DNA of 64,000 bases from an uncultured Actinomycetes bacterium (GCA_963707645.1 CAVPQW010000005.1:299309-363308); one strand, 5' to 3'. Shown: positions 4,204 through 35,488, counted from the stretch's first letter. Numbers and translations are program-made. Notes: generated by a model from the sequence alone, not told the origin.

Positions 4204-5405
4204 ATGGACGGGTACACGCGGGAGGAGCTCGCCGAGCGGGCGGGGGTGTCGGTCGATTTCGTCGACCGCCTCGTGGATTTCCGGCTCCTCCTTCCCGCCG
4301 GCGGGCAATTCTCCGACGGAGACCTGCGCAGAACGCGCTTCGTCCGGAACCTCGAGCAGGGCGGCGTTCCGCTGGAGACGATCGGTGCAGCCGTGGAGGG
4401 CGGGGCGATCTCGTTCGGCTTCTTCGACGCCGGGTACTGGGAGCGGTTCGGCGGACTGACGGGGACGACCTACCGCCGGCTCAGCACGGAAACCGGCGTG
4501 AGCATCGAGCTCCTGACGACGCTCCGCGAGTCGATGGGGTACGCGCGTCCCGGCCCCGACGACGCGGTCCGGGAGGACGAGCTCGTCGTGGTCCGCTGCT
4601 GCGGACGCTGATCGCCATGGGCGCGAACCCCCTCGCGCTCGAGCGCCACATGCGGATCTGGGGCGACAGCATGCGCCGGGTGGCGGATGCCGACGGGAGC
4701 TTCTACCGGTCGGAGATCGAGGAGCCGCTGCTCGCCGCGGGACTCGGCTGGTCGGACATGATCCGCGCGGCGTCGGAGGCCACGGAGGCGATGGTGCCGC
4801 TCCTCGATCCCGCGCTGTTGTCCATCTACCACGCGCAATCGGAGCACACCTGGATGGGAAACATCGTGGAGGCCATAGAGTCCGCGCTCGAGGACGCCGG
4901 CCTGCACCGGTCGCCGGAGAACGTGCCGGCGATGTGCTTCCTCGACCTCAGCGGATACACGAGGCTGACCGAGGAACGAGGGGACCAGGCCGCGGCGGAG
5001 ATGGCGGCCACGCTCGCGAAGCTCGTGCAGACCGGCTCGCACGGGCGGGGCGGGCGGCCGGTGAAGTGGCTGGGCGACGGGGTGATGGTGCACTTCCGTC
5101 AACCGGGCGCCGCGGTGCTGTTCGCGCTCGAGATGCGCGAGGTCATCCCCGCGGCGGACCTCCCCCCTCCGCATGCCGGGATCGCCGCCGGGCCGATCGT
5201 GTTCCAGGACGGCGACTACTACGGGCGAACGGTCAACGTCGCCGCCCGGGTCTCGGCGCGCGCGACCGCGGGGCAGGTGCTCGCGACCGACGAGGTCGTG
5301 CGGGTCACGACGGACCCGGACGTCGAGTTCGTGGACATGGGCCCGGCCGAGTTGAAGGGCGTGTCCCGGCCGGTGCGGCTCCACGAGGCGCGGCGTCGGG
5401 ACTGA
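4204..5405 (+). CDS. MerR-like HTH / class III adenylate-guanylate cyclase fusion protein, frame disruption near 4597
   Basis: ORF 4204..4611 starts MDGYTREELAERAGVSVDFVDRLVDFRLL (HTH-like). The tail of ORF 4194..5405 carries the cyclase motifs AMCFLDLSGYTRLTEERGDQAAAEM...VKWLGDGVMVHF...IAAGPIVFQDGDYYGRTVNVAARV. Paralog of 10583..11816. Confidence 0.75.
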
Positions 5406-6750: not shown

Positions 6751-7677
6751 TCACGCTGACCGAACCGGCGGCCCCGCCGTGTTGGGGCCCGGCTCGACGT
6801 TCAGCAGGTCGCGCAGCCGTTCGTCGGAGATGGCCGCCGGCTCGCTCTCGTGGAGGAACCCCGTGACCGCCCGAACGAACCGCTCCGGATGCTCCGCCTG
6901 CGGGAAGTGGCCGGTGTCGCGCATGATCTCGAGTCTGCTGCCGGGCATCGCTGCGTGCGCCGCGTGCGCGTGGGCGACCGGGATGATCGCGTCCCGCTCG
7001 CCCCACACGATGAGCGTGGGGATGTCGGCCGCGAGCGACAACCGCTCCGTGGCGCTCACGCGCTGCCCGCCGGCGTCGACAACCGATCGAAGCGTGTGGA
7101 TGAGCGCGGCCCGAGCGTCGGGGCTCGCGAGTGACGCGTAGCATCGCCCGATCTCGGCGAACGACGCGGTGGGACGAAGGCCGATCCGGGCCAGCCATCC
7201 CGCAACCGTCCGTCCGGCGTCGAGCACGCGCGGGGAGCATCCCACCGACAACACGAGCTCGGCGCCCGGGAGCGTCAGCGCCCGGAGGTGGAGGGCGACC
7301 TCTCTCCCGAGCCCGCCGGAATCGACGAGCACGAGCCGCTCACACCGCTCGGGGAACTGGTACGCCGTTTGCATGGCGATACCGCCACCGAGCGAGTGTC
7401 CGATGAACGTTGCCCGGGGCATGTCGAGCGCCGCCATCAGATCCCGGAGGCAGGACGCGTGGGCGCCGAGCGAGTAGTCGCCGCCCGGGTTCGTCGAGCC
7501 GCCGTGGCCCGGGAGATCCGGCGCGATGACCGTTCCGTGCTCCGCCAGGAGCGGGATCACCGGCTCCCACGTCACCGACGAGCTCGCCATGCCATGGATC
7601 AGGACGATGCCCGGACCCGAGCCGGCTTTCCGGTACGCGACCTCATGACCACGAAGGCGCAGCCGGCGCAGCCTCAT
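6751..7677 (-). CDS. alpha/beta hydrolase
   Basis: Tail of ORF 6751..8493 from ATG 7677: MRLRRLRLRGHEVAYRKAGSGPGIVLIHGMASSS...FIGHSLGGGIAMQ...DTGHFPQAEHPERF. ATGA overlap with the stop of the upstream desaturase gene. Confidence 0.8.
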   Translation of the reverse strand: MRLRRLRLRGHEVAYRKAGSGPGIVLIHGMASSSVTWEPVIPLLAEHGTVIAPDLPGHGGSTNPGGDYSLGAHASCLRDLMAALDMPRATFIGHSLGGGIAMQTAYQFPERCERLVLVDSGGLGREVALHLRALTLPGAELVLSVGCSPRVLDAGRTVAGWLARIGLRPTASFAEIGRCYASLASPDARAALIHTLRSVVDAGGQRVSATERLSLAADIPTLIVWGERDAIIPVAHAHAAHAAMPGSRLEIMRDTGHFPQAEHPERFVRAVTGFLHESEPAAISDERLRDLLNVEPGPNTAGPPVRSA

Positions 7678-8588
7678 GTCGATGAGCCCGCCCGCCGTGC
7701 TTCGTACCGTGCCGCGGCGGCATCGAGGTGCGGCAGGAACTCCATGATCGCGTCGCGGGCGAGCTCGGCCTCGTCGGACAGCCCATCGAGGTGCTCGAGG
7801 CGCCACTGCTTCAGCAGTACGGGCACCAGCACCTGGTCGTGGTGGATGCGGAGGTCGTAGATGCCGGCCTTCGCGATGCGGATCGCCTTCTCGCGGAACG
7901 CCGGAAGCTCGAGCCCCGGCATCGAGAACCCCAGGACCTGCCGGGCCATCGCCACCACCGTGGCCGAGGGATCCACCTCCAGCGCGCCGGCCGTGACGTC
8001 GCGGTAGAAAACGTAGTGGAGGTTCTCGTCCACCGCGATGCGGGACATCAGCTTCTCCGCGACCGGGTCCTCGGTGATCGCGCCGGTGTTCCGGTGCGAG
8101 ATGCGCGTGGCCAGCTCCTGCAGCGTCACGTACACGAGCCCGTCGAGCGGCGTGAAGTCCCCGGCCGGGTAGTAGCCGCGTGAGACGTGCTCCATGCGCG
8201 CGCGTTCCAGGGCGACGGGGTCGACGCCGCGGGTCACGGTCAGGAAATCGCGCATCGCGATCGCGTGGCGGCCCTCCTCGGCCGTCCACCGCCGGGTCCA
8301 CTCCCCCCACGGCCCGTTTCCGCCGAACGTCTCCCAGATCGCCAGGTGGTAGTAGGGCAGGTTGTCCTCGGTCAGGAGGTTGACCTCGAGCGCCGTCTGG
8401 GCGATGTCGGACAACCGGCTGTCTCCGGCGTCCCAGGGTTCGTCCGTGAAGTTTCGGCCTTCCTCCCACGGCACGTACTCGTGGGGGAACCACTCCTGGG
8501 CGGCGGACAGGTGCCGGTCGAGGACGGACCCGACCAGCGATTCGAGCTCGAGCAGGACATCGGTGGGCGTGACGGTCGACGTCGGCAT
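7674..8588 (-). CDS. acyl-ACP desaturase (DesA-like di-iron desaturase)
   Basis: ORF 7674..8588: LTEDNLPYYH...WTAEEGRHAIAMRDFL...QELATRISHRNTG...VDENLHYVFYRD, the di-iron EXXH motifs of the soluble desaturase family. Confidence 0.8.
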   Translation of the reverse strand: MPTSTVTPTDVLLELESLVGSVLDRHLSAAQEWFPHEYVPWEEGRNFTDEPWDAGDSRLSDIAQTALEVNLLTEDNLPYYHLAIWETFGGNGPWGEWTRRWTAEEGRHAIAMRDFLTVTRGVDPVALERARMEHVSRGYYPAGDFTPLDGLVYVTLQELATRISHRNTGAITEDPVAEKLMSRIAVDENLHYVFYRDVTAGALEVDPSATVVAMARQVLGFSMPGLELPAFREKAIRIAKAGIYDLRIHHDQVLVPVLLKQWRLEHLDGLSDEAELARDAIMEFLPHLDAAAARYEARRAGSST

Positions 8589-8614
8589 CAGGGACTCCTC
8601 GGTGATGGACAGAA

Positions 8615-8664
8615 AGGTTACGCTCGCGTAGGTTACGTCAACGTAGGTTACGGTGGCGTAATAT
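8615..8664. promoter_or_regulatory. candidate TetR operator: AGGTTACG x3 at 15-bp period, overlapping a TAATAT -10-like hexamer
   Basis: AGGTTACG occurs at 8615, 8630 and 8645 (units AGGTTACGnnnnCGT). TAATAT at 8659-8664 lies 12 nt upstream of the TetR ATG. The site sits in the 88-bp divergent gap between the desaturase and TetR genes. Confidence 0.5.
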
Positions 8665-8676
8665 CGTTGTCAAGCC

Positions 8677-10336: not shown

Positions 10337-10404
10337 AGGATCACGACCGCGGGGGATGAAGTAATCACCCCCATCCGTGGCCTTGGGAAGCCACAAGCAA
10401 TACG

Positions 10405-10488
10405 TGCCCGGGGTGGGACTCGAACCCACATGGCCCAAGGGCCCGCGCTTTTTAAGAGCGCTTCGTCTACCGATTTCGACACCCGGGC
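10405..10488 (-). tRNA. tRNA-Leu (anticodon UAA)
   Basis: The reverse complement folds as a class II tRNA: acceptor GCCCGGG/CCCGGGC; anticodon stem GCGCT/AGCGC with loop CTTAAAA; long variable arm GGGCCCTTGGGCC; T arm GTGGGTTCGAGTCCCAC. No CCA is encoded. Confidence 0.9.
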
Positions 10489-10582: not shown

Positions 10583-11816
10583 ATGCAGCCCTCCCAATCC
10601 CTGTCCGAGGACGAGCTTGCGCGGGGCAGCGGGGCCCCGCCCGAGCAGATCCGGCGCCTGGTCGACTTGGGGATCGTTCCGCGTCGCGACGGGGAGCGCC
10701 CGTTCGAAGCCGCGGACGTCCACCGGATCCGGCTCGCGCAGGCGTTTGAACGTTCCGGCATCGCGTTGGAGGCGATCGGGGACGCGATCGGCGCGGGCTG
10801 GCTCTCGCTGGACTTCGTGGACCGGATGTTCCCGACTCGCGGCGCCGCTGTCCGGGCGGACCTTCGCGGAGGTCGCCGACGACATCGGGGTCCCGCTCGA
10901 GACGCTCACCCGCCTGTACGCGATGTGGGGACTTCCCCGCCCCGCGCCCGAAGACGCGATCCGCGAGGACGACGAACCGACCTTCCGCGAGTGGAAGGCG
11001 TTCTTCCCGCCGGAGGCCCTCAACGACGAGCTGCTGACCCAGGGCGCGCGGCTGTTCGGCGAGGCGACGAGCCGGGTGGCCGACTGGGGAATGTCCATGT
11101 ACCGGACCTACATGGAGGCCCCGATGCGGGCGGCCGGCATGACGTCACAGGAGATGCTGGACGCTGCGACCGCGTTCGCCTCTGTCGGAACGCCCATCAT
11201 GGAACGCCAGCTCAGCTGGCTGCTGCGACGGAAGCTCGAGCACAACGCGTTCCAACTGATCGTCGAGCACATCGAAGGCGCGATCGAGGCCGCGGGCACA
11301 CCCGTGCCCGGGACGGCGCGCCCGTCGGCGATCGCGTTCGTCGACCTTTCGGGCTACACGGCGCTGACGGAGGAGATCGGGGACCAGGCCGCCGCCGACC
11401 GCGCGGCGACGATGGGGACGATGCTGCAGGAGCTTGCGCACGCTCGGGGCGGGCGGGTCGTGAAGCTCCTGGGGGACGGGGCGATGCTCCACTTCCCGGA
11501 TCCGGCCGAGGCGGTCCGCACCGGACTCGAGGTCGTGCGGCACCTGCATGACGCGGGGATGCCGCCGGCCCACGTGGGCGTGGCGGCGGGCCCGGTGGTA
11601 TTCCGGGAGGGCGACTACTACGGCCGCGTCGTCAACCTCGCCGCCCGGATCATGGGCCGGGCCGGGGCGAACGAGGTCCTGGCGACGGCAGGGGTCGCCT
11701 CGGCGCTCGAGGACCTCGCATTCGAGTCGCTGGGCATGGTTGAGTTGAAGGGAATCGCCGAACCGGTCGAGCTGTTCCGCGCTACCGCCGCCGGAGACGC
11801 GCCGGCGTCCCGCTGA
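10583..11816 (+). CDS. MerR-like HTH / class III adenylate-guanylate cyclase fusion protein (paralog of 4204..5405), frame disruption near 10840
   Basis: From internal ATG 10583, ORF 10430..11551 reads MQPSQSLSEDELARGSGAPPEQIRRLVDLGIV. The tail of ORF 10377..11816 carries AIAFVDLSGYTALTEEIGDQAAAD...VKLLGDGAMLHF...VAAGPVVFREGDYYGRVVNLAARI. The earlier part of ORF 10430 overlaps the tRNA. Confidence 0.75.
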
Positions 11817-14079: not shown

Positions 14080-14356
14080 GCCAGTCCCCCCAAACATCAT
14101 GTCGCCGATCGGTGGCATTCGCCATCTGTCGACGATCGGCGAAAACCTTCGCGGGGAGGAGCGCTGCCCGTGCCGCTGAGCAGCGATTCTGGATCCAACC
14201 GCCACGGTCTGACACGACCGGTTGTCGACGAACGCTGACATTGCCCGACGGTCACCGATCATCGACATGGGCCTGGGAGGAGGACGCCCGTGTCGGAGCC
14301 GGCCCGGGAACGCAAGGCGACGCTGCACGCTTCGTGGACGCCAACACGCTCGCGAA
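14058..14356 (+). repeat. copy A of three-copy conserved intergenic element (core 14086-14288; four palindromic boxes)
   Basis: Aligns by hand with the reverse complement of 25278-25480 (about 80% over about 205 columns) and with 32536-32736. Boxes lie at 14101-14116, 14128-14143, 14224-14239 and 14251-14266. The strand given is only the relative orientation. Confidence 0.8.
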
Positions 14357-14388: not shown

Positions 14389-15339
14389 CTAACCGGCCCC
14401 GCGGAACCACTCGACGGTTTCGCGCAGCCCGCCACGGAACGTGTGCTCCGGCTTGAATCCGAGCACCTCCATCGCCGCCGTGTTGTCCGCCTGGGAGTCG
14501 CGGATCTCGCCGGGCCGGGGCGACGCGTACTCGGGTTCCGGCTGCGACACGTCGGGCACCAACGCGCGGATCTCGCGGAGCAGCTCGTTCACGGAGTGGC
14601 GTTCGTTGTACGCGACGTTGAACGCCCGGCCCCACGCCTCCGAAGGCGCCTCGGCCGCGAGGAGATTCGCCTGCACGACGTCGCCGATGAACGTGAAGTC
14701 GCGGGACTGCTCGCCGTCGCCGTAGATCGTGACGGGCCCGCCGGTGAGCGCCGCCGTCGCGAACCGCGGGACGACCGCCGCGTACTCCGACTCGGGGTCC
14801 TGCCGCGGCCCGAACACGTTGAAGTACCGCAGCGCCACGGTCGGGAGCCCGAACGACGCGTGGAAGGCGCCGAGGTAGGTCTCGCCGGCCAGCTTCGACA
14901 CCGCGTACGGCGAGAGCGGCCGGGTGGGGACCTCCTCCGTGACCGGGAGCTGCTCCGCGTCGCCATAGACCGAGGACGACGACGCGTACACGACGCGTTC
15001 CACCCCGGCGTCGCGCGCAGCGATCAGCACGTTGAGCGTTCCAGTGACGTTCGACTCGTTCGACGCGAGCGGCGCCGCGACCGAGCGCGCCACGGAGGGG
15101 ATCGCGGCCTCGTGAAACACGCGCGACACGCCCTGGGTGGCCCGGCCGACGGTGGCCAGGTGTTCCACGGAGCCGACGATCAGCTCGACGTCGCCCGCGA
15201 CGTCGTCGAGGTTGGAACGGCGACCCGTCGACAGGTTGTCGAGCACCCGCACCGCGAGGCCGCGCTCGAGCAGGGCGCGCACCAGGTTGGAGCCGATGAA
15301 CCCGGCCCCTCCCGTGACGAGGCAGCGTTCGGACGTCAC
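14389..15339 (-). CDS. NAD-dependent sugar-nucleotide epimerase/dehydratase (SDR)
   Basis: ORF 14389..15339: VTGGAGFIGSNLV, SSSSVYG, PYAVSKLAGE (YxxxK). Confidence 0.85.
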   Translation of the reverse strand: MTSERCLVTGGAGFIGSNLVRALLERGLAVRVLDNLSTGRRSNLDDVAGDVELIVGSVEHLATVGRATQGVSRVFHEAAIPSVARSVAAPLASNESNVTGTLNVLIAARDAGVERVVYASSSSVYGDAEQLPVTEEVPTRPLSPYAVSKLAGETYLGAFHASFGLPTVALRYFNVFGPRQDPESEYAAVVPRFATAALTGGPVTIYGDGEQSRDFTFIGDVVQANLLAAEAPSEAWGRAFNVAYNERHSVNELLREIRALVPDVSQPEPEYASPRPGEIRDSQADNTAAMEVLGFKPEHTFRGGLRETVEWFRGAG

Positions 15340-25094: not shown

Positions 25095-25187
25095 CCGCGT
25101 AGTCTCCGCGACGCGCTCCGGGGGCACAAGGCGCACCGAGTCTCCGTGTCCATGAGCGGGGAGATCGGCGACGCGGGTCAGCACGAA

Positions 25188-25520
25188 CCTGAGCGGCGTT
25201 CCGCTCGTTGACGTCCTCGAGGTACAGGTCGAGGACGTCGCCGGGAACCGGGTCTCGAGGGCGGGTTCCGGACAGGAGGCGTCTTCCTCCCAGGCCCATG
25301 TCGACGATCGACGACCGTGTGGGAATGACCACCGCTCGTCGACATCCTTCGTGTCAGACCCGTTGTGTTGGATACGGAACTGCTGCTCAGCGGCACGGGC
25401 AGCGTTCCTCCCCCCGCGATGTTGTCGTCGATCGTCAACGGGTCGCGACTGTCACCGAACGGCGACGTGACGTTGGGGGGAGGAGAGCATGAACCTTCGA
25501 TCCCCGAGGGACGTGGCGAT
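25188..25520 (-). repeat. copy B (inverted, most complete) of the three-copy element: wzt-3'-like relic 25188-25245, core 25278-25480, junction with XRE gene start
   Basis: The reverse complement aligns with copy A over the full 203-nt core. The minus strand of 25188-25245 encodes PGDVLDLYLEDVNERNAAQ, against the true Wzt C-terminus ADEVLNLYLQDVDERNAVAQ. The G-run end of the core runs into GGAGGAGAGC-ATG of the HTH gene. Confidence 0.8.
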
Positions 25521-25751
25521 CGTCGTTCGCGAAGCCCGGCTGACCCACCTGAGCAGGCGGATCTCGCCGAGCGGCTTCACGTGAGCCGCGCTTGGATCGT
25601 CAAGCTGGAGCAGGGACGGGCGCGATTGCAGCTCGGACTCGTTCTCAAGGCACTTGATGCCGTCGGTTTCGTGATGAGCGTGTCCTTCGAGCGGTTGACG
25701 AGGCGGGATACCTCTGGACGCGTCGACATCGAAAACCCCTTGGACTTGTGA
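25489..25751 (+). CDS. XRE-family HTH regulator (HipB/y4mF antitoxin-like, orphan), one frame disruption near 25553
   Basis: ATG 25489 follows GGAGGAGAGC: MNLRSPRDVAIVVREARLTHLS. After a shift, ORF 25365..25751 continues with ADLAERLHVSRAWIVKLEQGRARLQLGLVLKALDAVGFVMSVSF. No hipA-like partner lies downstream. Confidence 0.7.
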
Positions 25752-25800: not shown

Positions 25801-26637
25801 CTAACCGGCCGACTCGGCGGGCGCCGGCTCCGCCGGCGCCTGAGCGACCGCGTTGCGCTCGTCGACGTCCTGCAGGTACAGGTTAAGCACCTCGTCGGCC
25901 GGCCCGTCGGCCCGGACCATGGCCCGGTCGAGGTAGATCACCCGGGGGCACAACCGCCGGACGTCGGCGAGGATGTGCGAGACGAACAGCAGCGTCTGGC
26001 CGTTCGCCCGGAGCTCGTCCATCCGCGTGAGGCACCGCCGCTGGAACGACTCGTCGCCGACCGCCAGCACCTCGTCGACGAGCAGCACGTCGGGCTCGAG
26101 GTGGACCGCCACGCTGAACCCGAGCCGCACCTCCATGCCGCTCGAGTACCGCTTGGTCGGCGTGTCGATGAACCGCCCGAGCTCCGCGAACTCGACGATG
26201 TCGTCGAACCGCGCGCGGATGTCCTTCCGCGTCAACCCCAGGATCGAGCCGTACAGGAAGATGTTCTCCCTGCCGGTCAGCTCGGGGTGGATGCCCGACT
26301 TGATCTCGATGAGCGACCCGACCCGGCCGCGCGTCTGCACGTTCCCGGCCCACGGCAGCGTGATCTTCGAGATGAGCTTCAGCGCGGTCGACTTGCCCGA
26401 GCCGTTCGGCCCGATGATGCCGACCGACTCGCCCTCGTTGATGTCGAACGTCGCGTCGGCGAGCGCCCACAGGTGCTTGATGGGCTCGGCCTTCTTGCGC
26501 AGCCCGGCGCGCTCGAGCGACAGCGTGATCTCCCCGGCCAGGGTGCGGCGCTTCACGTGGCCCTTGCGGCGCGCGCCGAGCCGGTACCGCTTCCACACGT
26601 GGTCCATCGAGACGACCGGGGTTCCGTTCGCCGCCAT
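25801..26637 (-). CDS. wzt: polysaccharide ABC transporter ATP-binding protein (Wzt/TagH type)
   Basis: C-terminal 278 aa of ORF 25801..27798 from ATG 26637: GIIGPNGSGKST (Walker A), YSSGMEVRLGFSVA (signature), LLVDEVLAVGD (Walker B), LFVSH. Confidence 0.85.
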   Translation of the reverse strand: MAANGTPVVSMDHVWKRYRLGARRKGHVKRRTLAGEITLSLERAGLRKKAEPIKHLWALADATFDINEGESVGIIGPNGSGKSTALKLISKITLPWAGNVQTRGRVGSLIEIKSGIHPELTGRENIFLYGSILGLTRKDIRARFDDIVEFAELGRFIDTPTKRYSSGMEVRLGFSVAVHLEPDVLLVDEVLAVGDESFQRRCLTRMDELRANGQTLLFVSHILADVRRLCPRVIYLDRAMVRADGPADEVLNLYLQDVDERNAVAQAPAEPAPAESAG

Positions 26638-28867: not shown

Positions 28868-29813
28868 ATGCGAGCGCTGGTGACCGGGGCGGCGGGGTTC
28901 ATCGGGTCGCGACTCGCGGCCCGGCTCCTCGACGAGGGGCACGAGGTCATCGGCGTCGACGCGTTCACGCCGTACTACGACCCGTCCGACAAGCGCGCGA
29001 ATATCGACGCGCTGCTGCAGCGCGCCGGGCACACCTTCGCCGAGGCCGACCTCCGCGAGGCCGACCTGGCGCCGTTCGTCGAGGTCGACGCGGTATTCCA
29101 TCTGGCGGCCCAGCCGGGCGTCCGCACCTCCTGGGGCGCGTCGTTCGCCGACTACGTGGAGCACAACGTGCTGGCAACGCAGCGACTGCTCGAGGCCTGT
29201 CGCGCCGCCTCGACGCCGCCCCGGGTCGTCTTGGCGTCATCGTCGTCGGTCTACGGCGAGGCGGAACGGCACCCGACGCCGGAGAACCTCACCCCCCGCC
29301 CGGTGTCGCCCTACGGCGTGACCAAGCTCGCCGCCGAGGCCCTCCTGACTGCGTACGCGGCCAACTTCGGGCTCTCGGGTGTCGTGCTCCGGTACTTCAC
29401 GGTCTACGGCCCCGCCCAGCGGCCGGACATGGCGTTCCATAAGTTCATCCGGGCGGCGCTCACCGGCGAGGGCGATCGAGGTCTACGGCGACGGAGAGCA
29501 GACCCGGGACGTGACGTTCGTGGACGACGCGGTCGATGCGACGATCGCCGCCGCCGGGACCGCCGAGGCCACCGGCGCGATCAACGTGGGGGGCGGGTCC
29601 CAGGTGGCGCTCAACGAGGTGCTCGAGGCCATCGGGCGCATCACCGGCCGCGAGCTCCGCATCGAACGCCGCGACAACGCCCCGGGCGACGTCCGGCACA
29701 CGTCGGCGGAGCTGACCCGGGCGCGCACCCTGCTCGGATACGACCCCCAGGTCGGGCTGGAGGAGGGCCTCCGCCAGGAGGTCGACTGGCTCCGCGCGCG
29801 GCTCGGGCGATGA
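28868..29813 (+). CDS. NAD-dependent epimerase/dehydratase (SDR), one frame disruption near 29465
   Basis: Start of ORF 28868..31057 (MRALVTGAAGFIGSRLA...SSSSVYG...PYGVTKLAAE...RYFTVYGPAQRPDMAFHKFI) continues in ORF 29379..29813 (IEVYGDGEQTRDVTFVDD...). Confidence 0.8.
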
Positions 29814-30980
29814 CGCGGGCCGGCGCCCGCCGGGCCCGTCAGGATCGCGTTCCTCATCAACTCCCTGGGGACCGGCGGCGCCGAGCGCCAGCTGGCGCTG
29901 ACGGTCGCCGAGATCGACCGGGAACGGTTCGAGCCGGTCGTCGTCACGCTGTTCCACGCGGGGGCGTTCCGGGAGGCGGTCGAACGGGCCGGGGTCGCCG
30001 TCCACGACCTCGGCCTCCCGAAGTCGCTCCGGCCGGCGATCAGGGGCGCCCGGGACGCGCTCGGGTCGATGCGGCCGGCGATCGTGCACACGGCGATGTT
30101 CGAGGCGAACGTCGCCGGCCGGCTCGCCGGCCGGCGACTCGGGATCCCGGTCGTGAGCCACGCGACGAACACCTACGACGCGCGTCTCCGCGAAGCGGAG
30201 ACGCGCGTCCCCGCCTGGAAGCAGCGGGCCGCGCGGCGCCTCGAGCGGTGGACCGCTCGGCGGTCGAACGCGCGAATCGTCGCCGTCGGCGACGAGGTCG
30301 CCCGTTCGACCGCCCGCTACCTCGGCGTCCCGCTGGAGCGCGTGGCGGTGGTCCGGCGGGGATTCCGCTTCGACGAGCTGGATGCCGCGGCGAGGGAGCC
30401 GCTCGAGGCCCCGGCATGGCCGGAGGGCGCCGCGCCCCGGCTGCTCGCGGTGGGCCGGCTGGCGCCGCAGAAAGGCCTCCGGTACCTGATCGAGGCCATG
30501 CCCGCGGACCCTGCGAACGCCACCCGGCAGCCCACCTGGTCGTGGCGGGGACCGGACCGCTCGAGGCCGAGCTCCGCGACCTCGCGGCCGTCCGCGGCGT
30601 TGCGGACCACGTCACCCTGGCCGGCGTCCGCCGGGACGTTCCCGCGCTCCTCGCCGCCGGGGACGCGTTCGTCCTGCCCTCGCTGTGGGAGGGCGCGGCC
30701 GGCGCGCTCGTCGAGGCCATGGGCCTCGGCGTCCCGGTCGCCGTCACGGACGACCCGGCCCTGCGGGAGGTGGCCGGGGACGCCGCCGCGTACTTCCCGC
30801 CGCAGGACCCCGCCGCCGATCGCCGAGTCCGTGGCCGGGCTCGCGGCCGACCCCGACGCCGCCCGCCGCCGGGCGGCGGGAGCGGTCACGCGCGTCCGTT
30901 CGATGCACGACATCGCCGCGAACACCCGCCGCCTCGAGGCCGTCTACGACGAGGCGCTCGGTCGCGGAGCGGTCTCCTGA
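29810..30980 (+). CDS. glycosyltransferase family 4 (GT-B), at least three frame disruptions (about 29830, 30515, 30820)
   Basis: ATG 29810 overlaps the previous stop (ATGA). Coherent sequence is spread over two frames: RIAFLINSLGTGGAERQLA...; HLVVAGTGPLEAELRDLA...FVLPSLWEGAAGALVEAMGLGVPVAVTD; IAESVAGLAADPDAARRR... Confidence 0.7.
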
Positions 30981-31028
30981 CGACCGCGCGCGGCACGTTC
31001 AGCGGCGCGATGCCGGGCGAATTCGGCA

Positions 31029-31056
31029 GCCGAAAGTTTTGGCCCTTCGGTTGTTG
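31029..31056 (+). terminator. weak candidate intrinsic terminator after the GT4 gene
   Basis: GCCGAA (31029-31034) pairs with TTCGGT (31046-31051) and is followed by TGTTG. The same CCGAA can instead pair with the upstream TTCGG at 31022-31026. The stem is short and the loop is 11 nt. Confidence 0.25.
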
Positions 31057-31131: not shown

Positions 31132-32454
31132 ATGACGCTGGAACTGGGCATCGATCCACTCAACGAGCTGGCCGAACGGATCCGCACGAAGCAGGCGCGG
31201 ATCGCGGTCGTCGGGCTCGGCTACGTCGGGCTGCCCCTCCTCGTCTCGGTGGCGAACGCCGGCTTCCGGACGATCGGGCTCGACGCGGACCCCGAGAAGG
31301 TCGGGCTCCTCGCGGAGGGGCGTTCCTACATCGTCGACGTCACCGACTACGACGTCGCCAGCGTCGAGCGGGGGCGCTTCTCGACCGATCCCGCGCTCCT
31401 CGACGATGCCGACGTCGTCATCATCTGCGTCCCGACGCCGCTCACCGACCACGCGCCGGACCTGTCGCTCGTCCGCCGAGCCGCCGAGGACGTCGGCAAG
31501 CACCTGGCGAGCCGGGGCGGCTGGTCGTCCTCGAGTCGACGACCTACCCCGGCACCACCGAGGAGATCCTCCGCCCCTCGCTCGAGGCGCACTCGGGACT
31601 CGAGGCCGGGCGCGACTTCGCCCTCGGCTACTCGCCGGAGCGCATCGACCCGGGGCAGCGCTCGCACCGCCTCGAGAACACGCCGAAGATCGTCGCCGGC
31701 CTCACCGACCGGTGCCGGGATCTCACGGCGTCGTTCTACGCGCACTTCGTCCGGGACGTCGTGACCACGGCGTCGCCCCGCGAGGCCGAGATGGCCAAGC
31801 TCGTGGAGAACACGTTCCGCCAGGTGAACATCGCCCTCGTGAACGAGCTCGCGATCATGGCCCGCGAGATGGGCGTCGACATCTGGGAGGCGCTCCAGGC
31901 CGCGTCGACGAAGCCGTTCGGCTACATGCCGTTCTGGCCGGGGCCGGGCGTCGGCGGCCACTGCATCTCGATCGACCCGTCCTACCTGTCGTGGCGCGCC
32001 GGCCAGCAGCTCGGCTACCGGATCGGGTTCATCGAGCACGCGAACGAGGTGAACAACCGGATGCCCGAGTACGTGGTCTCGCGGATCGGCGAGGCGCTCA
32101 ACGAGGCCGGCAAGCCGCTCAAGGGGTCACGGGTCTTCTGCATCGGCGTCGCGTACAAGCCCGGGGTCGACGACCTCCGGGAGTCGCCGGCGCTCGAGGT
32201 GCTCGACCGGCTGGCCCGGCGCGGCGCCACGGTGAGCTACCACGACCCCCTCGTGGCGCACGTGGAGCTTCGGGAATTACAGCTCGACTCACGGCGCGCT
32301 CACGGAGGAGGTCCTGGAGGACCAGGACTGCGTGGTCGTCCTCACCGCCCACCCGGGGCTCGACGTCCGCATGGTCGTCAGGTGCGCGGCGCTCGTGTTC
32401 GACGCCCGGGGGGTCACCGCCGGCATGGACGCGCCGAACGTCGTCCGCCTGTAG
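31132..32454 (+). CDS. nucleotide-sugar (UDP-glucose/GDP-mannose family) dehydrogenase, two frame disruptions (about 31510, 32280)
   Basis: ORF 31132..31764 starts ...RIAVVGLGYVGLPLLV (Rossmann fold). It continues in the frame of ORF 31761..32564 (LESTTYPGTT...EMAKLVENTFRQVNIALVNE...GPGVGGHCISIDP...GVAYKPGVDDLRESPA). The last 55 aa (...VVLTAHPGLD...APNVVRL) lie in a third frame ending at 32454. Confidence 0.8.
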
Positions 32455-32487
32455 CCGCGGAACCCCCGCCGCAAACACCTGTTGGTC

Positions 32488-32830
32488 GGCGACGATCGCA
32501 ACGTCCCTTGGAGGAGCACGGACCTTCGTGCGCTCTCCTCCAGCGTCGTGTCGCCGATCGATGACAGGCACGAACAGTCGACGAACGACGACATCTTCGT
32601 GGGGAAGGACCGCTGCCTGGGCGGCTGAGCAGCGATTTCGTATGTACCACGACGGATCTGACAGGCTGGATGTCGAGGAGCGGTGACTTCCCCCGAAGGT
32701 CGACGATCGACGACATGGGCCTGGGAAGAGCCAGCCGTCATCACCGCCAAGGGATCCATCGCCCCCCCGGGGACATTCGAGGCAAAGAGCCCAGCCACCT
32801 GGGCGGACGTGCGAGGGGCCGAGCTTCGAA
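32488..32830 (+). repeat. copy C of the three-copy element (core 32536-32736), with truncated XRE-start relic and weak wzt-3'-like relic
   Basis: The core aligns with copies A and B, sharing GTCGCCGATCG, GCTGAGCAGCGATT, TCTGACA, ATGTCGAGGAGCGGTGAC and GACATGGGCCTGGGA. The reverse complement of 32490-32509 matches 18 of 20 nt of XRE codons 7-13. Confidence 0.75.
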
Positions 32831-32928
32831 ACGGCATTGAAAGTCGGACGCCTGAGCCGAGCCCGTTCGTCCCGCCCGATGCGACCCTCCGAGGCCGGTT
32901 CGGGACCGTCCGATATCCTCAAGCCCCG

Positions 32929-33857
32929 ATGGCACCCGACGTCTCCGTCGTCATCCCCACGAAGAACCGGCCCCAGCTGATCGGCCGGGCCGTGGCCAGC
33001 GCGCTGTCCCAGGAGGGGCCGAGCGTGGAGGTCGTGCTCGTCGACGACGGCTCCGACCCGGACGCGGCGGCCGCCATCGCGGAGGTCGGGCGGTCCGATC
33101 CCCGCATCCGGCACGTCCGCAACGAGGAGTCGATCGGGAACCCGGCCTCGCGCAACCGGGGGTTCGAGGAGGCCACCGGCGACCTGTGGTGCACGCTCGA
33201 CGACGACGACGAGTTCACGCCCGGCCGGCTCCGCGCGCAGGTCGAGGCCGTCCGCGCGACCGCCGCCGACGACGTCATCGGCATCGCCGGGGTCGAGCTC
33301 CGGTGGACCGATCGCGACCCGCTCGTGCAGCTCCCGCAGATCGGGGCCGACCCCGTCCGGCTCGACACCGACGCGACCCGTTCGCGCGGCTCGCGCCGCG
33401 GCTGTTCCTGAACACCTACCTCGTGCCGGCCGCGCTCATGCGGAAGGTCGACGGCTACGACCCCATCCTGCGGTGGGGCGAGCACACGGACCTGTACCTC
33501 CGCCTGCAGAAGGTTGCGCGGTTCGTGGGCGTGCCCATGGTCGGAACGGTCGTCCACCGCGACGCCGCGCCCGGCCTGGCCCGACAGGCCTGGGACCGCA
33601 AGGTCATCGGCGTGTCGCGGATCCTCGAGAAGCACGCCGACGTGTTCGAACGGAGCCCGCACCTTCGGGCGGTGTGGCTCGACGGACTCGGCATGGCCTA
33701 CCTCCGCACGGGCCGGCGCGCCGAGGCCCGGCGAACGTTCCGCGAGGCCCTCAGGGCGAACCCCCGCCGGGCGCGGATCCTCCGGCACCTGGTGGCGGCG
33801 ACCACCCACACGGAGACGATCCTGTGCCGGGGCAAGGCCGAGCGGGTGCCCGCGTGA
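32929..33857 (+). CDS. glycosyltransferase family 2, one frame disruption near 33375
   Basis: In ORF 32683..33411, from ATG 32929: MAPDVSVVIPTKNRPQLIGRAVASALSQ...VVLVDDGSDPD...LDDDDEFTPGRL. It continues in the frame of ORF 33186..33857 (LFLNTYLVPAALMRKVDGYD...). Confidence 0.75.
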
Positions 33858-33873
33858 CCCGGAGGCCCGCCCG

Positions 33874-35488
33874 ATGAACCGAGGCGGCGTGCTGGTCGTC
33901 GGCATCGACGGCGGGACGTGGGACGTGTTCCGCCCGCTCGCCGAGCGGGGCCTCATGCCGAACATGGGCCGCGTGCTCGACGAGGGCGCGCACGGCGAGC
34001 TCACGAGCGTCGTCCCCTGGTACACGATCCCCGGCTGGACCAGCCTGATGACCGGGGCGAACCCCGGCCGCCACGGCCTGCTTGCACTGGGTGCGGACCG
34101 AGGCCGCCGACTACTGGGAGAGCCGCCGGGCGGGGCGCCGGTTCACCCTCAGCACCGACATGGGCCTGCCGACGTTCTGGGACGTGGCCGGCGCCGCGGG
34201 CAAGCAGGTGGCCGTCGTCAACATGCCGCTCACGTTCCCAGCCTGGCCGGTGAACGGCGTCATGGTCACCGGCCTGCTGACCCCGGCGGGCGACGTCGGC
34301 GGCCAGTCGCACCCGGAAGGGTTCCTCGGCGACTACCCCGAGTACCGCGTCGACCTCCGCCACGCCAAGGGCCGGGAGGCCGAAGGCAGCCTGCCGCCGC
34401 TCCAGCAGCTCCTGCGGGAGATGGTCGAGGTCACCGAGAGCCGGCGCCGCCTGATGTCCGACCTCACCGCCGGCGACCGGGACCTCATGGTGGCCGTGTT
34501 CGTCGGCATGGACCGGGTCTCGCACCGCGTGTGGCCGGAGCAGGAACGCCTCCTCGCGGGCGACGAGTCCGGGGAGCTGGAGCGCCTGCTCGGCGAGTAC
34601 TACCGGTCGCTCGACTCGGTGATCGGCTCGCTCATCGAGGCCGCGGGGCCGGACGCCACCACGCTGTTCGTGTCCGACCACGGCTTCGGGCGGGGCCCGG
34701 ACCGGAAGTTCCGGGCCAACGCCTGGCTGCGCGACGCCGGCTACCTGGCGCTCCGGGGCGGGCGGGTGCAGCAGGCCGCGCATTCGCGCGGCCGGCTGAA
34801 GAAGGTCGGGAGCCGGGCGCTCAAGGCCTACCGCCGGCGTGCCCGGCGTCCCGCCGAGCACGTCGGCGTCAACCTCGCCGCCACGCAGGCGTACGCGGTG
34901 CAGTTCTCCTGGTGTCCCGTGTTCGGGATCGCCGTCAACGAGCGCGGCGTCAAGCGCGAGGGCTCGGTCGACCCGGCCGAGATCCCGGCGCTGCTCGACC
35001 GGATGACCGAGGACCTCATGAAGATCGAGGACCCCGACGCGAGCGGTCCGGTGGTCCTCAGGGTGATGCGGCGCGAGGAGGTCGCCGACGGGCCGGAGCT
35101 CGCGCGGCTCCCCCATCTGTTCGTCGAGCTCGACCCCCGCTACTTCCCCGACGACGGCCTCCGCCGCAGGGACGTGTTCGAGCCGCTGCAGACGAGCTCG
35201 GGGCGGCACACGCGGGAGGGGCTGCTCGGGGCGTTCGGGGCACGGGTCAACCCGGCGTTCGACGGCGCGGCCCGCATCGAGGACGTGGCGCCGACGGTCC
35301 TGGCGCTGCTCGGCCTCGAGGCCACGCCGGACATGGACGGCAAGGTGCTCGGCGACCTGGTGACGACGACCGACCATCTGGAGGCGGCGCCCGAAGCGGC
35401 GGCGCCGACCGCCACGGCAGTCGAGCTGTCGGAGGACGACCAGGCCGCCATCGAGCGGCACCTCAGGGATCTCGGGTACGAGGAGTAG
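33874..35488 (+). CDS. alkaline phosphatase superfamily protein (type I phosphodiesterase/nucleotide pyrophosphatase-like), one frame disruption near 34080
   Basis: From ATG 33874: MNRGGVLVVGIDGGTWDVF...VVPWYTIPGWTSLMTGANPGRHG. It continues in ORF 34082..35488 (...LFVSDHGFG...). Ends DDQAAIERHLRDLGYEE. Confidence 0.7.

Follow-up and report, generated by a model that had tools for sequence, protein, structure and literature searches.

The gap between a UDP-sugar dehydrogenase gene and a GT2 gene in the window (the whole 64-kb stretch of DNA that was analysed) contains a repeated element, copy C, which is probably a decayed duplicate of the operator/promoter region of a HipB/Y4mF-like XRE repressor, with copy B of the same element as the original. 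The copies are homologous, copy B lies in its native context, the palindromic boxes share one architecture and are conserved, and relatives differ in which copies they carry.

Structure of the Gap Upstream of the GT2 Gene

An earlier reading made from the DNA letters alone (the sequence-only reading) had described a gap of 475 bp between a sugar dehydrogenase gene and a GT2 gene. The gap is present and measures 474 nt (32455–32928). It extends from the TAG stop codon (32452–32454) of the UDP-sugar dehydrogenase gene upstream (31132–32454, + strand; Pfam UDPG_MGDP_dh_N), which shows two apparent frameshifts in a three-frame reading, to the ATG at 32929 of the GT2 gene downstream, whose 5′ part (32929–33408, + strand) matches Pfam Glycos_transf_2 (E 7e-30) and shifts frame near 33380. 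Contig L015, which carries a GT2 homologue, begins at that gene and thus has no DNA upstream of it.

The repeat had been claimed to span 32488–32830. Similarity to the two other copies in the window, A and B, is confined to approximately 32484/32490–32740, or about 53% of the gap, but the whole segment 32484–32849 is common to the metagenome contig L014, and the claimed right-hand limit is therefore roughly right for the C subtype. This C-type unit (32484–32849, + strand) consists of a hipB stub, a four-box core and a 110-nt extension. The stub (32484–32533, − strand) is the dead 5′ end of a hipB-like gene of about 15 codons, with its start changed from ATG to ACG; its DNA aligns with the first hipB codons of copy B and of contigs L006 and L014, and it gives a weak tblastn match at 32529–32488. 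It abuts the dehydrogenase stop codon and is untranslatable.

Within the core, box 1 (TGTCGCCGATCGATGACA, 32549–32566) has zero mismatches to TGTCRNCGWTCGNYGACA and is followed at a distance of 27 bp by box 2 (32576–32593). The central segment (32594–32670) contains a conserved CGCTGCC..GCTGAGCAGCG dyad and TCTGACA, and precedes a degenerate box 3 with three mismatches (32671–32688) and, 27 bp further on, box 4 (32698–32715). The distal end common to A, B, and C (32716–32740, + strand) comprises TGGGCCTGGGA and a purine-rich Shine-Dalgarno-like run; both the alignment and the flank tests place the end of the three-way similarity here, at ...CGACATGGGCCTGGGAGGAGGACGCC (32740 in copy C). The extension that follows (32741–32849, + strand) is specific to the C type, being 81% identical to L014 and unlike the flanks of A or B. 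Copy C as a whole lies about 189–445 nt upstream of the GT2 ATG.

A Family of Three Intergenic Copies

Repeat searching and blastn identified one element in three copies, A (14083–14305, + strand), B (25278–25488, − strand), and C (32484/32490–32740, + strand), and no fourth copy was found in the 64-kb window by either approach. In blastn comparisons A and B were 80% identical over 224 nt (E 5e-48), B and C 77% over 244 nt (E 1e-43), and A and C 75% over 213 nt (E 4e-30), with an overall range of about 72–80% among the in-window copies. The repeat copy in the gap, the third of the set, is thus real and has the orientation of A, inverted relative to B, and the element proved to be a genuine repeated non-coding cis-element, as the sequence-only reading had it. 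Its statements on orientation were also borne out: B lies upstream of the cyclase gene (− strand), A faces the 3′ end of an epimerase gene, and C is oriented toward GT2 as B is toward the cyclase gene, with 188 nt between the end of the core and the ATG at C and 183 nt at B, although the sequences of these two stretches are unrelated. All copies are intergenic, and the element has a G + C content of 62–64%, compared to 72% for the window and the genome.

Beyond the core (in C, past 32740), the flanks of A, B, and C show no significant similarity when evaluated against shuffled sequence, and a flank homology of the three copies that was apparent by eye was rejected because it scored no better than the shuffles. 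When copies from metagenome contigs are included, two subfamilies can be distinguished: B, L006, and A group together at 80–85% identity and C groups with L014 at 84%, with 70–77% between the groups. The proximal ends differ, since A stops at the ribosome-binding site of hipB, C and L014 run 50–80 nt into hipB, and B continues into the gene. A common distal end, differing proximal ends and the lack of any visible target-site duplication at the copy junctions together fit a DNA-level duplication of the control region, or of a hipB cassette with later erosion of the gene. Because both C and the L014 copy retain the first hipB codons along with the ribosome-binding site, they descend from a hipB-bearing locus.

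The Native Locus

Copy B represents the native control region (25278–25488, − strand) between the ATG of an adenylate-cyclase-type gene (Guanylate_cyc; ATG 25094, − strand, placed by homology with the gene call in L005) and the ATG of a hipB/Y4mF-like XRE gene (25489–25751, + strand), whose homologues have 88 aa and which is frameshifted near 25554 in the window. Its boxes are located at 25450–25467, 25423–25440, 25326–25344, and 25299–25316. Read on the opposite strand, copy B ends with GGGGGGAGGAGAGC-ATG (ATG 25489), which is the ribosome-binding site and start of hipB; GGAGGAG lies 5 nt before this ATG, and box 1 ends 21 nt before it. Elsewhere in the window, two segments of about 200 nt (4927–5132 and 11326–11531) that are 70–73% identical and exactly 6399 nt apart look like paralogous adenylate-cyclase-type coding DNA with GDGVMVHF-like motifs, which would mean that the window contains several cyclase genes.

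The hipB-like gene of the window was recovered as two tblastn HSPs in different frames. With the frame restored, the best NCBIfam match of the protein is TIGR03070 couple_hipB (Y4mF family antitoxin) with an E value of 1.2e-12 and 47.6 bits, the curated cutoff being 71.65 bits; Pfam reports HTH_31, and the PDB profile matches are generic XRE proteins, among them HipB structures at E 7e-6 to 3e-4. Intact homologues in the protein database have 88 aa, are 78–83% identical, are all metagenomic, and end in ...PLDW. The window gene itself ends in ...PLDL (25743–25751) through a TGG to TTG change, with Trp at this position in five of five homologues; the Leu results from a substitution and not from an indel, and the corresponding position of E. 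coli HipB makes contact with HipA.

No hipA partner is present: downstream of hipB, which ends at 25751, a convergent ABC ATPase gene ends at 25801, and the same holds for contigs L005, L006, and L007. In the absence of a hipA gene, the hipB-like gene is an orphan that fails one defining feature of hipBA. Contig L008 has the order cyclase gene, element, hipB, with the two genes divergent, and L006 carries the element and hipB followed by the convergent ABC ATPase gene but ends before any cyclase gene could be reached. Since this arrangement is kept in related contigs, copy B marks the ancestral location, a divergent hipB/cyclase control region. The orphan gene is intact in at least five related contigs beside the same neighbours and therefore looks like a domesticated regulator rather than debris. 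Two of these relatives, L005 and L007, are syntenic with the window at 91% DNA identity, with hipB and the cyclase gene intact, and have lost about 170 nt of the native element, from box 2 to past box 4 (L005 1085–1153 and L007 430–510 compared to window 25263–25432). In L008, the orthologous element (205–300) lacks the CCCAGGCCCA end motif.

The 3′ end of the ABC ATPase gene (original 25814–25898) recurs in diverged form on the other side of the element (25165–25244, − strand), with 75% identity over 85 columns and a score reached by none of 300 shuffles. The two copies of this gene end bracket hipB and the element as 85-nt diverged direct repeats and resemble the footprint of an old integration, in which a gene end is doubled as in attL/attR.

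Frame Changes in the Source Assembly

Frame changes affect the dehydrogenase gene (twice), the GT2 gene continuing into a TPR segment, a phosphodiesterase gene, an epimerase/GT4/GT1 stretch, and hipB, the stretches concerned being 31132–32454, 32929–33900, 33514–35488, 28868–31054, and 25489–25751. A relative's contig has intact genes of normal length where the window genes change frame, which suggests indel errors of a long-read assembly rather than pseudogenes. The frame changes belong to the source assembly, since the window's own truncated gene products come from its 813-kb source contig. Single-base indels, including the one in hipB, may thus be sequencing errors. For the same reason, the tightly packed, intact operon that the sequence-only reading had assumed around the gap is uncertain, given the apparent frameshifts in neighbouring genes. 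The Leu end and the frameshift of the only hipB-like gene in the window count against a role of the boxes as its operators, but the frameshift may be a sequencing error because many genes in this assembly are frameshifted.

Palindromic Boxes as Candidate Operators

The core of about 210 bp contains four 18-bp imperfect palindromes with the consensus TGTCRnCGaTCGnYGACA, arranged as two pairs around the conserved central segment, with a start-to-start pitch of 27 bp within each pair and 95–96 bp between the starts of box 3 and box 2. When up to two mismatches were allowed, the motif occurred at 11 sites in 64 kb, 10 of which fall inside the three copies (22 strand-matches compared to 0.85 expected); the sole site outside the copies in the 64-kb window is probably due to chance. 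Across six copies (A, B, C, L006, L008, and L014), 47 of 72 box columns are invariant compared to 46 of 119 non-box columns (Fisher p = 5e-4), the dyad of the central segment has a mean pairwise identity of 0.83, and the 9-nt spacers within the box pairs are the least conserved parts (0.58–0.70 mean identity). Box positions 5, 6, and 13 vary without compensating changes, and this variable, non-complementary pattern fits protein contact and not RNA pairing. In L008, indels between the boxes add 10 bp (pitch 37) and approximately 11 bp, each roughly one helical turn. Neither a sigma-70-like promoter (sought in both directions), nor a terminator, nor a conserved −10 hexamer was found, which is weak evidence in a high-G + C actinobacterium.

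By analogy with E. coli hipBA, the boxes may be operators to which the HipB-like protein binds as dimers. The hipB ribosome-binding site is immediately preceded by boxes 1 and 2, which would overlap the hipB promoter or leader and could mediate autorepression, and boxes 3 and 4 would face the divergent cyclase gene. The control region has probably been copied as DNA into at least two other intergenic sites. At copy C the hipB part has decayed to the stub, with the side that originally faced the cyclase gene now pointing at GT2. If copy C is active, it most likely acts as a protein-binding array between the dehydrogenase gene and GT2, which could serve as a repressor roadblock or as a repressible promoter, and any such effect on GT2 expression would tie this gene to the HipB-like regulator.

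Copies in Relatives and the Possibility of Neutral Decay

A different view of copy C is that of a neutral relic of a duplicated or integrated hipB cassette, a mere spacer between the dehydrogenase gene and GT2 with no regulatory role. This is unlikely on balance, although several features of the copies agree with it, among them the history of copy A and the comparison of C with its counterpart in L014. Copy A (14083–14305, + strand; boxes 14100–14117, 14127–14144, 14223–14240, and 14250–14267) sits between the stop codons of an ArsR-type gene (14079) and the epimerase gene (14389). In two relatives with ArsR-type proteins 89% and 85% identical to that of the window, the convergent ArsR-type and epimerase genes overlap and leave no room for the element, and in a third, L016, the site is occupied by a 127-nt spacer of unrelated sequence; contig L033, which is 95.4% identical to the window over 4.2 kb, does carry copy A. 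Between the window and L033, 69 of 72 box positions, 123 of 135 positions of the non-box core, and 92 of 101 flank positions are identical. The non-box core and flank together thus show 91% identity, close to the 94% at third codon positions of the ArsR-type and epimerase genes, and the excess conservation of the boxes over the non-box core is not significant (p = 0.27). Copy A, absent in three relatives, present in L033 and diverging at about the synonymous rate, is therefore best described as a lineage-specific insertion that drifts approximately neutrally; since its non-box part drifts in this way, A and possibly C may be functionless relics. Beside copy A, the epimerase gene contains one arm (14652–14726) of a 75-nt inverted repeat with 75% complementarity to 29482–29556; the two arms are paralogous epimerase coding sequences on opposite strands, the second at approximately 28.9–29.6 kb, and lie outside the element.

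The L014 copy (1510–1871) is 82% identical to the C unit (32484–32849) over 370 aligned columns and is located between a gene judged DHFR-like by visual inspection of its translation and a convergent ORF. The flanks of the C-type unit are unrelated on both sides between the window and L014, and the ends of the unit are sharp. Identity is distributed evenly over the stub (78%), the core (84%), and the extension (81%), as neutral decay would predict, and boxes (62 of 72 positions identical) are not significantly more conserved than the non-box core (107 of 129; p = 0.69). Numerous 1-nt indels between C and L014 indicate that the C-type unit is non-coding, and for the same reason the idea that the element or its extension contains a conserved small ORF was rejected. 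The dead hipB stub of copy C, the tolerated loss of half the native element in L005 and L007, and the location of copy A and the L014 copy at the 3′ ends of convergent genes, a position that offers no gene to control, likewise agree with neutral decay. On the other side, boxes 1 and 2 are near-perfect in both C and L014 despite about 16% overall divergence, the boxes are more conserved than the rest of the core over the six copies (although the native copies may supply much of this signal), and two unrelated loci have retained a 366-nt unit whose ends are sharp.

Possible Mobility of the Element

The element could also be a MITE- or REPIN-type mobile element, small and non-autonomous, whose inverted box pairs would act as termini or hairpins recognized by a transposase in trans. 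Copy A is polymorphic for presence and absence between relatives, the C-type unit occurs with sharp ends at unrelated loci in two organisms, and all copies are intergenic with a G + C content below that of the genome, as would be expected of such an element. The left and right box pairs are moreover inverted repeats of each other, matching at 38 of 50 positions in L006, a score that no shuffle reached. This inverted similarity is, however, limited to the operator-like boxes, and the native copy is syntenic across relatives. A search for terminal inverted repeats common to all copies and for target-site duplications at the junctions found neither, and ragged proximal ends without target-site duplication are a poor fit to a transposon with fixed termini. 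The copies differ by 20–28%, hence there has been no recent burst.

Database searches did not reveal a wider distribution either. No match was obtained by blastn against plasmids (PLSDB), a pattern scan of 185,579 representative GTDB genomes yielded four hits, all of them chance matches to the anchors only, and viral contigs gave no pattern hit, a protein search retrieving only distant generic XRE relatives. The pattern scan of metagenomes gave six hits, of which L014 alone was real, the other five being chance matches within coding sequence. The sequence family of the element is undescribed and found only in a few soil metagenome contigs. Taken with the points on termini and divergence above, a MITE- or REPIN-type origin is improbable.

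RNA Structure Potential

The sequence-only reading had placed a hairpin at the start of the element, proposed a long structured RNA leader for GT2, and attributed antisense potential to copy A. The hairpin (GGAGGAG...CTCCTCC, 32510–32541, + strand) does exist, with arms at 32510–32516 and 32535–32541 that pair in the MFE fold, and its 3′ arm equals the reverse complement of GGAGGAG, the Shine-Dalgarno sequence of hipB. Because copy B runs into the hipB ribosome-binding site and ATG, the CTCCTCC arm corresponds to the ribosome-binding site in antisense, and the hairpin is formed by the antisense Shine-Dalgarno sequence and first codons of the dead hipB stub, a fossil ribosome-binding site.

Rfam 15 covariance models gave no match at the element in a gathering scan of the whole window, and a scan of 32300–33000 up to E 10 returned only noise. 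The sole Rfam hit in the window was a full-length match to ASdes sRNA (8209–8276, + strand; 68.9 bits; E 3e-14), which lies opposite a probable − strand gene (7674–8669). A tRNA-Leu(UAA) predicted by ARAGORN (10404–10488, − strand) has no counterpart in the Rfam gathering scan and coincides with long ORFs; the prediction may be false. RNAalifold analyses of the six copies yielded covariation terms of +2.9 and +1.9 on the two strands, positive values being penalising, and only 2–3 of 55 predicted pairs were compensatory on either strand, with box 1 paired to box 4. MFE z-scores of the core ranged from −1.4 to −2.8 and were similar on both strands, as expected for DNA palindromes. The fold of the whole 474-nt gap (z = −2.8 on the + strand compared to −0.2 on the − strand) is the one result that favours an RNA leader.

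The ability of the element to form structure is a side effect of its four operator-like palindromes. Given the Rfam and covariation results, the similar folding of the core on both strands, and the origin of the hairpin as a gene remnant, the proposed leader is not supported, and on the same Rfam, covariation, and strand-symmetry evidence an antisense RNA role of copy A is unsupported. That the element is a cis-acting structured RNA leader, an sRNA, or an antisense RNA is thus very improbable, even though it is co-oriented with the flanking genes, has a G + C content below that of coding DNA, and shows the strand difference of the whole gap, since the variable box positions are non-complementary and no terminator was found. 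With its four palindromic repressor-type sites, the most fitting interpretation of the gap is duplicated regulatory DNA rather than a structured RNA leader.

Comparison with Known Systems

The closest parallel to the native locus is the hipBA operon of E. coli, whose HipB has 88 aa and a conserved C-terminal W88 (PMC3376134) and binds four operators of the form TATCC-N8-GGATA cooperatively (PMC3920265); these operators are 18-bp sites with an O1–O2 pitch of 28 bp, as derived from the published O1O2 oligonucleotide. In copy B, L006, and L008, four 18-bp palindromes of the same 5-N8-5 format are likewise located directly upstream of a HipB/Y4mF-type XRE gene of 88 aa, the pitch of paired sites is 27 bp, and the homologues end in Trp. 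The systems differ in the half-site, which is TGTCR/YGACA with a conserved central CGATCG here as opposed to TATCC, in the divergent pairing of the gene with an adenylate cyclase gene, and in the copying of the operator region to other loci. Compared to the hipBA operator array, copy C has only a dead hipB stub left beside its boxes. The locus also resembles orphan antitoxins and decayed toxin-antitoxin cassettes, as an antitoxin-family HTH gene occurs without a toxin, stubs are found at the secondary copies, and a duplicated gene end of 85 nt flanks the native cassette on both sides; unlike in decayed cassettes, the orphan gene is intact in at least five related contigs with the same neighbours.

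Putative mobile promoters have been defined by at least 80% identity over at least 50 nt between the −150 to −50 regions of non-paralogous genes (PMC3575422; Matus-Garcia, Nijveen and van Passel 2012). Similar to these, the element forms homologous non-coding regions before unrelated genes in one genome and in another organism, with no known IS associated. The in-window identity is 72–80%, with B–C (77%) and A–C (75%) falling short of their definition, and reaches 82–84% for L014, but copy C lies outside the −150 to −50 interval relative to GT2. The element further differs from putative mobile promoters in that, of its four secondary copies, two are directed at gene 3′ ends, and in that a gene stub has been copied along. 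With REP/REPIN, ERIC, Correia, and MITE repeats the element shares its intergenic location, palindromic modules, inverted box pairs, and presence or absence among strains. It differs from them in lacking common termini and target-site duplications, in its few and diverged copies, and in that the palindromes always occur in the same 210-bp frame derived from a gene control region.

Implications

A broader interpretation is that the hipB control region is a portable operator cassette whose copying into new intergenic sites brings genes, here a GT2 operon for sulfated polysaccharide, under an orphan HipB-like, cyclase-paired repressor as part of its regulon; such a cassette may move with the help of its palindromic pairs of boxes and of the 85-nt direct repeats at the native locus, which resemble those of an integration. 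This is speculative and rather unlikely, and the same doubt attaches to its extension, in which a domesticated toxin-antitoxin autoregulatory module would be spreading and rewiring cell-envelope polysaccharide synthesis.

For annotation, the 474-nt gap contains neither an overlooked ORF nor an RNA gene. Duplicated control regions of orphan antitoxin-type regulators are already known as a kind, and if the copies are neutral relics they would be ordinary genome debris in a poorly sampled actinobacterial lineage. If the HipB-like protein binds the boxes, the element would be a clear case from nature of a regulon growing through the duplication of an entire operator array, and an orphan antitoxin-type repressor would have entered ordinary gene regulation beside a cyclase gene and inside a polysaccharide cluster.
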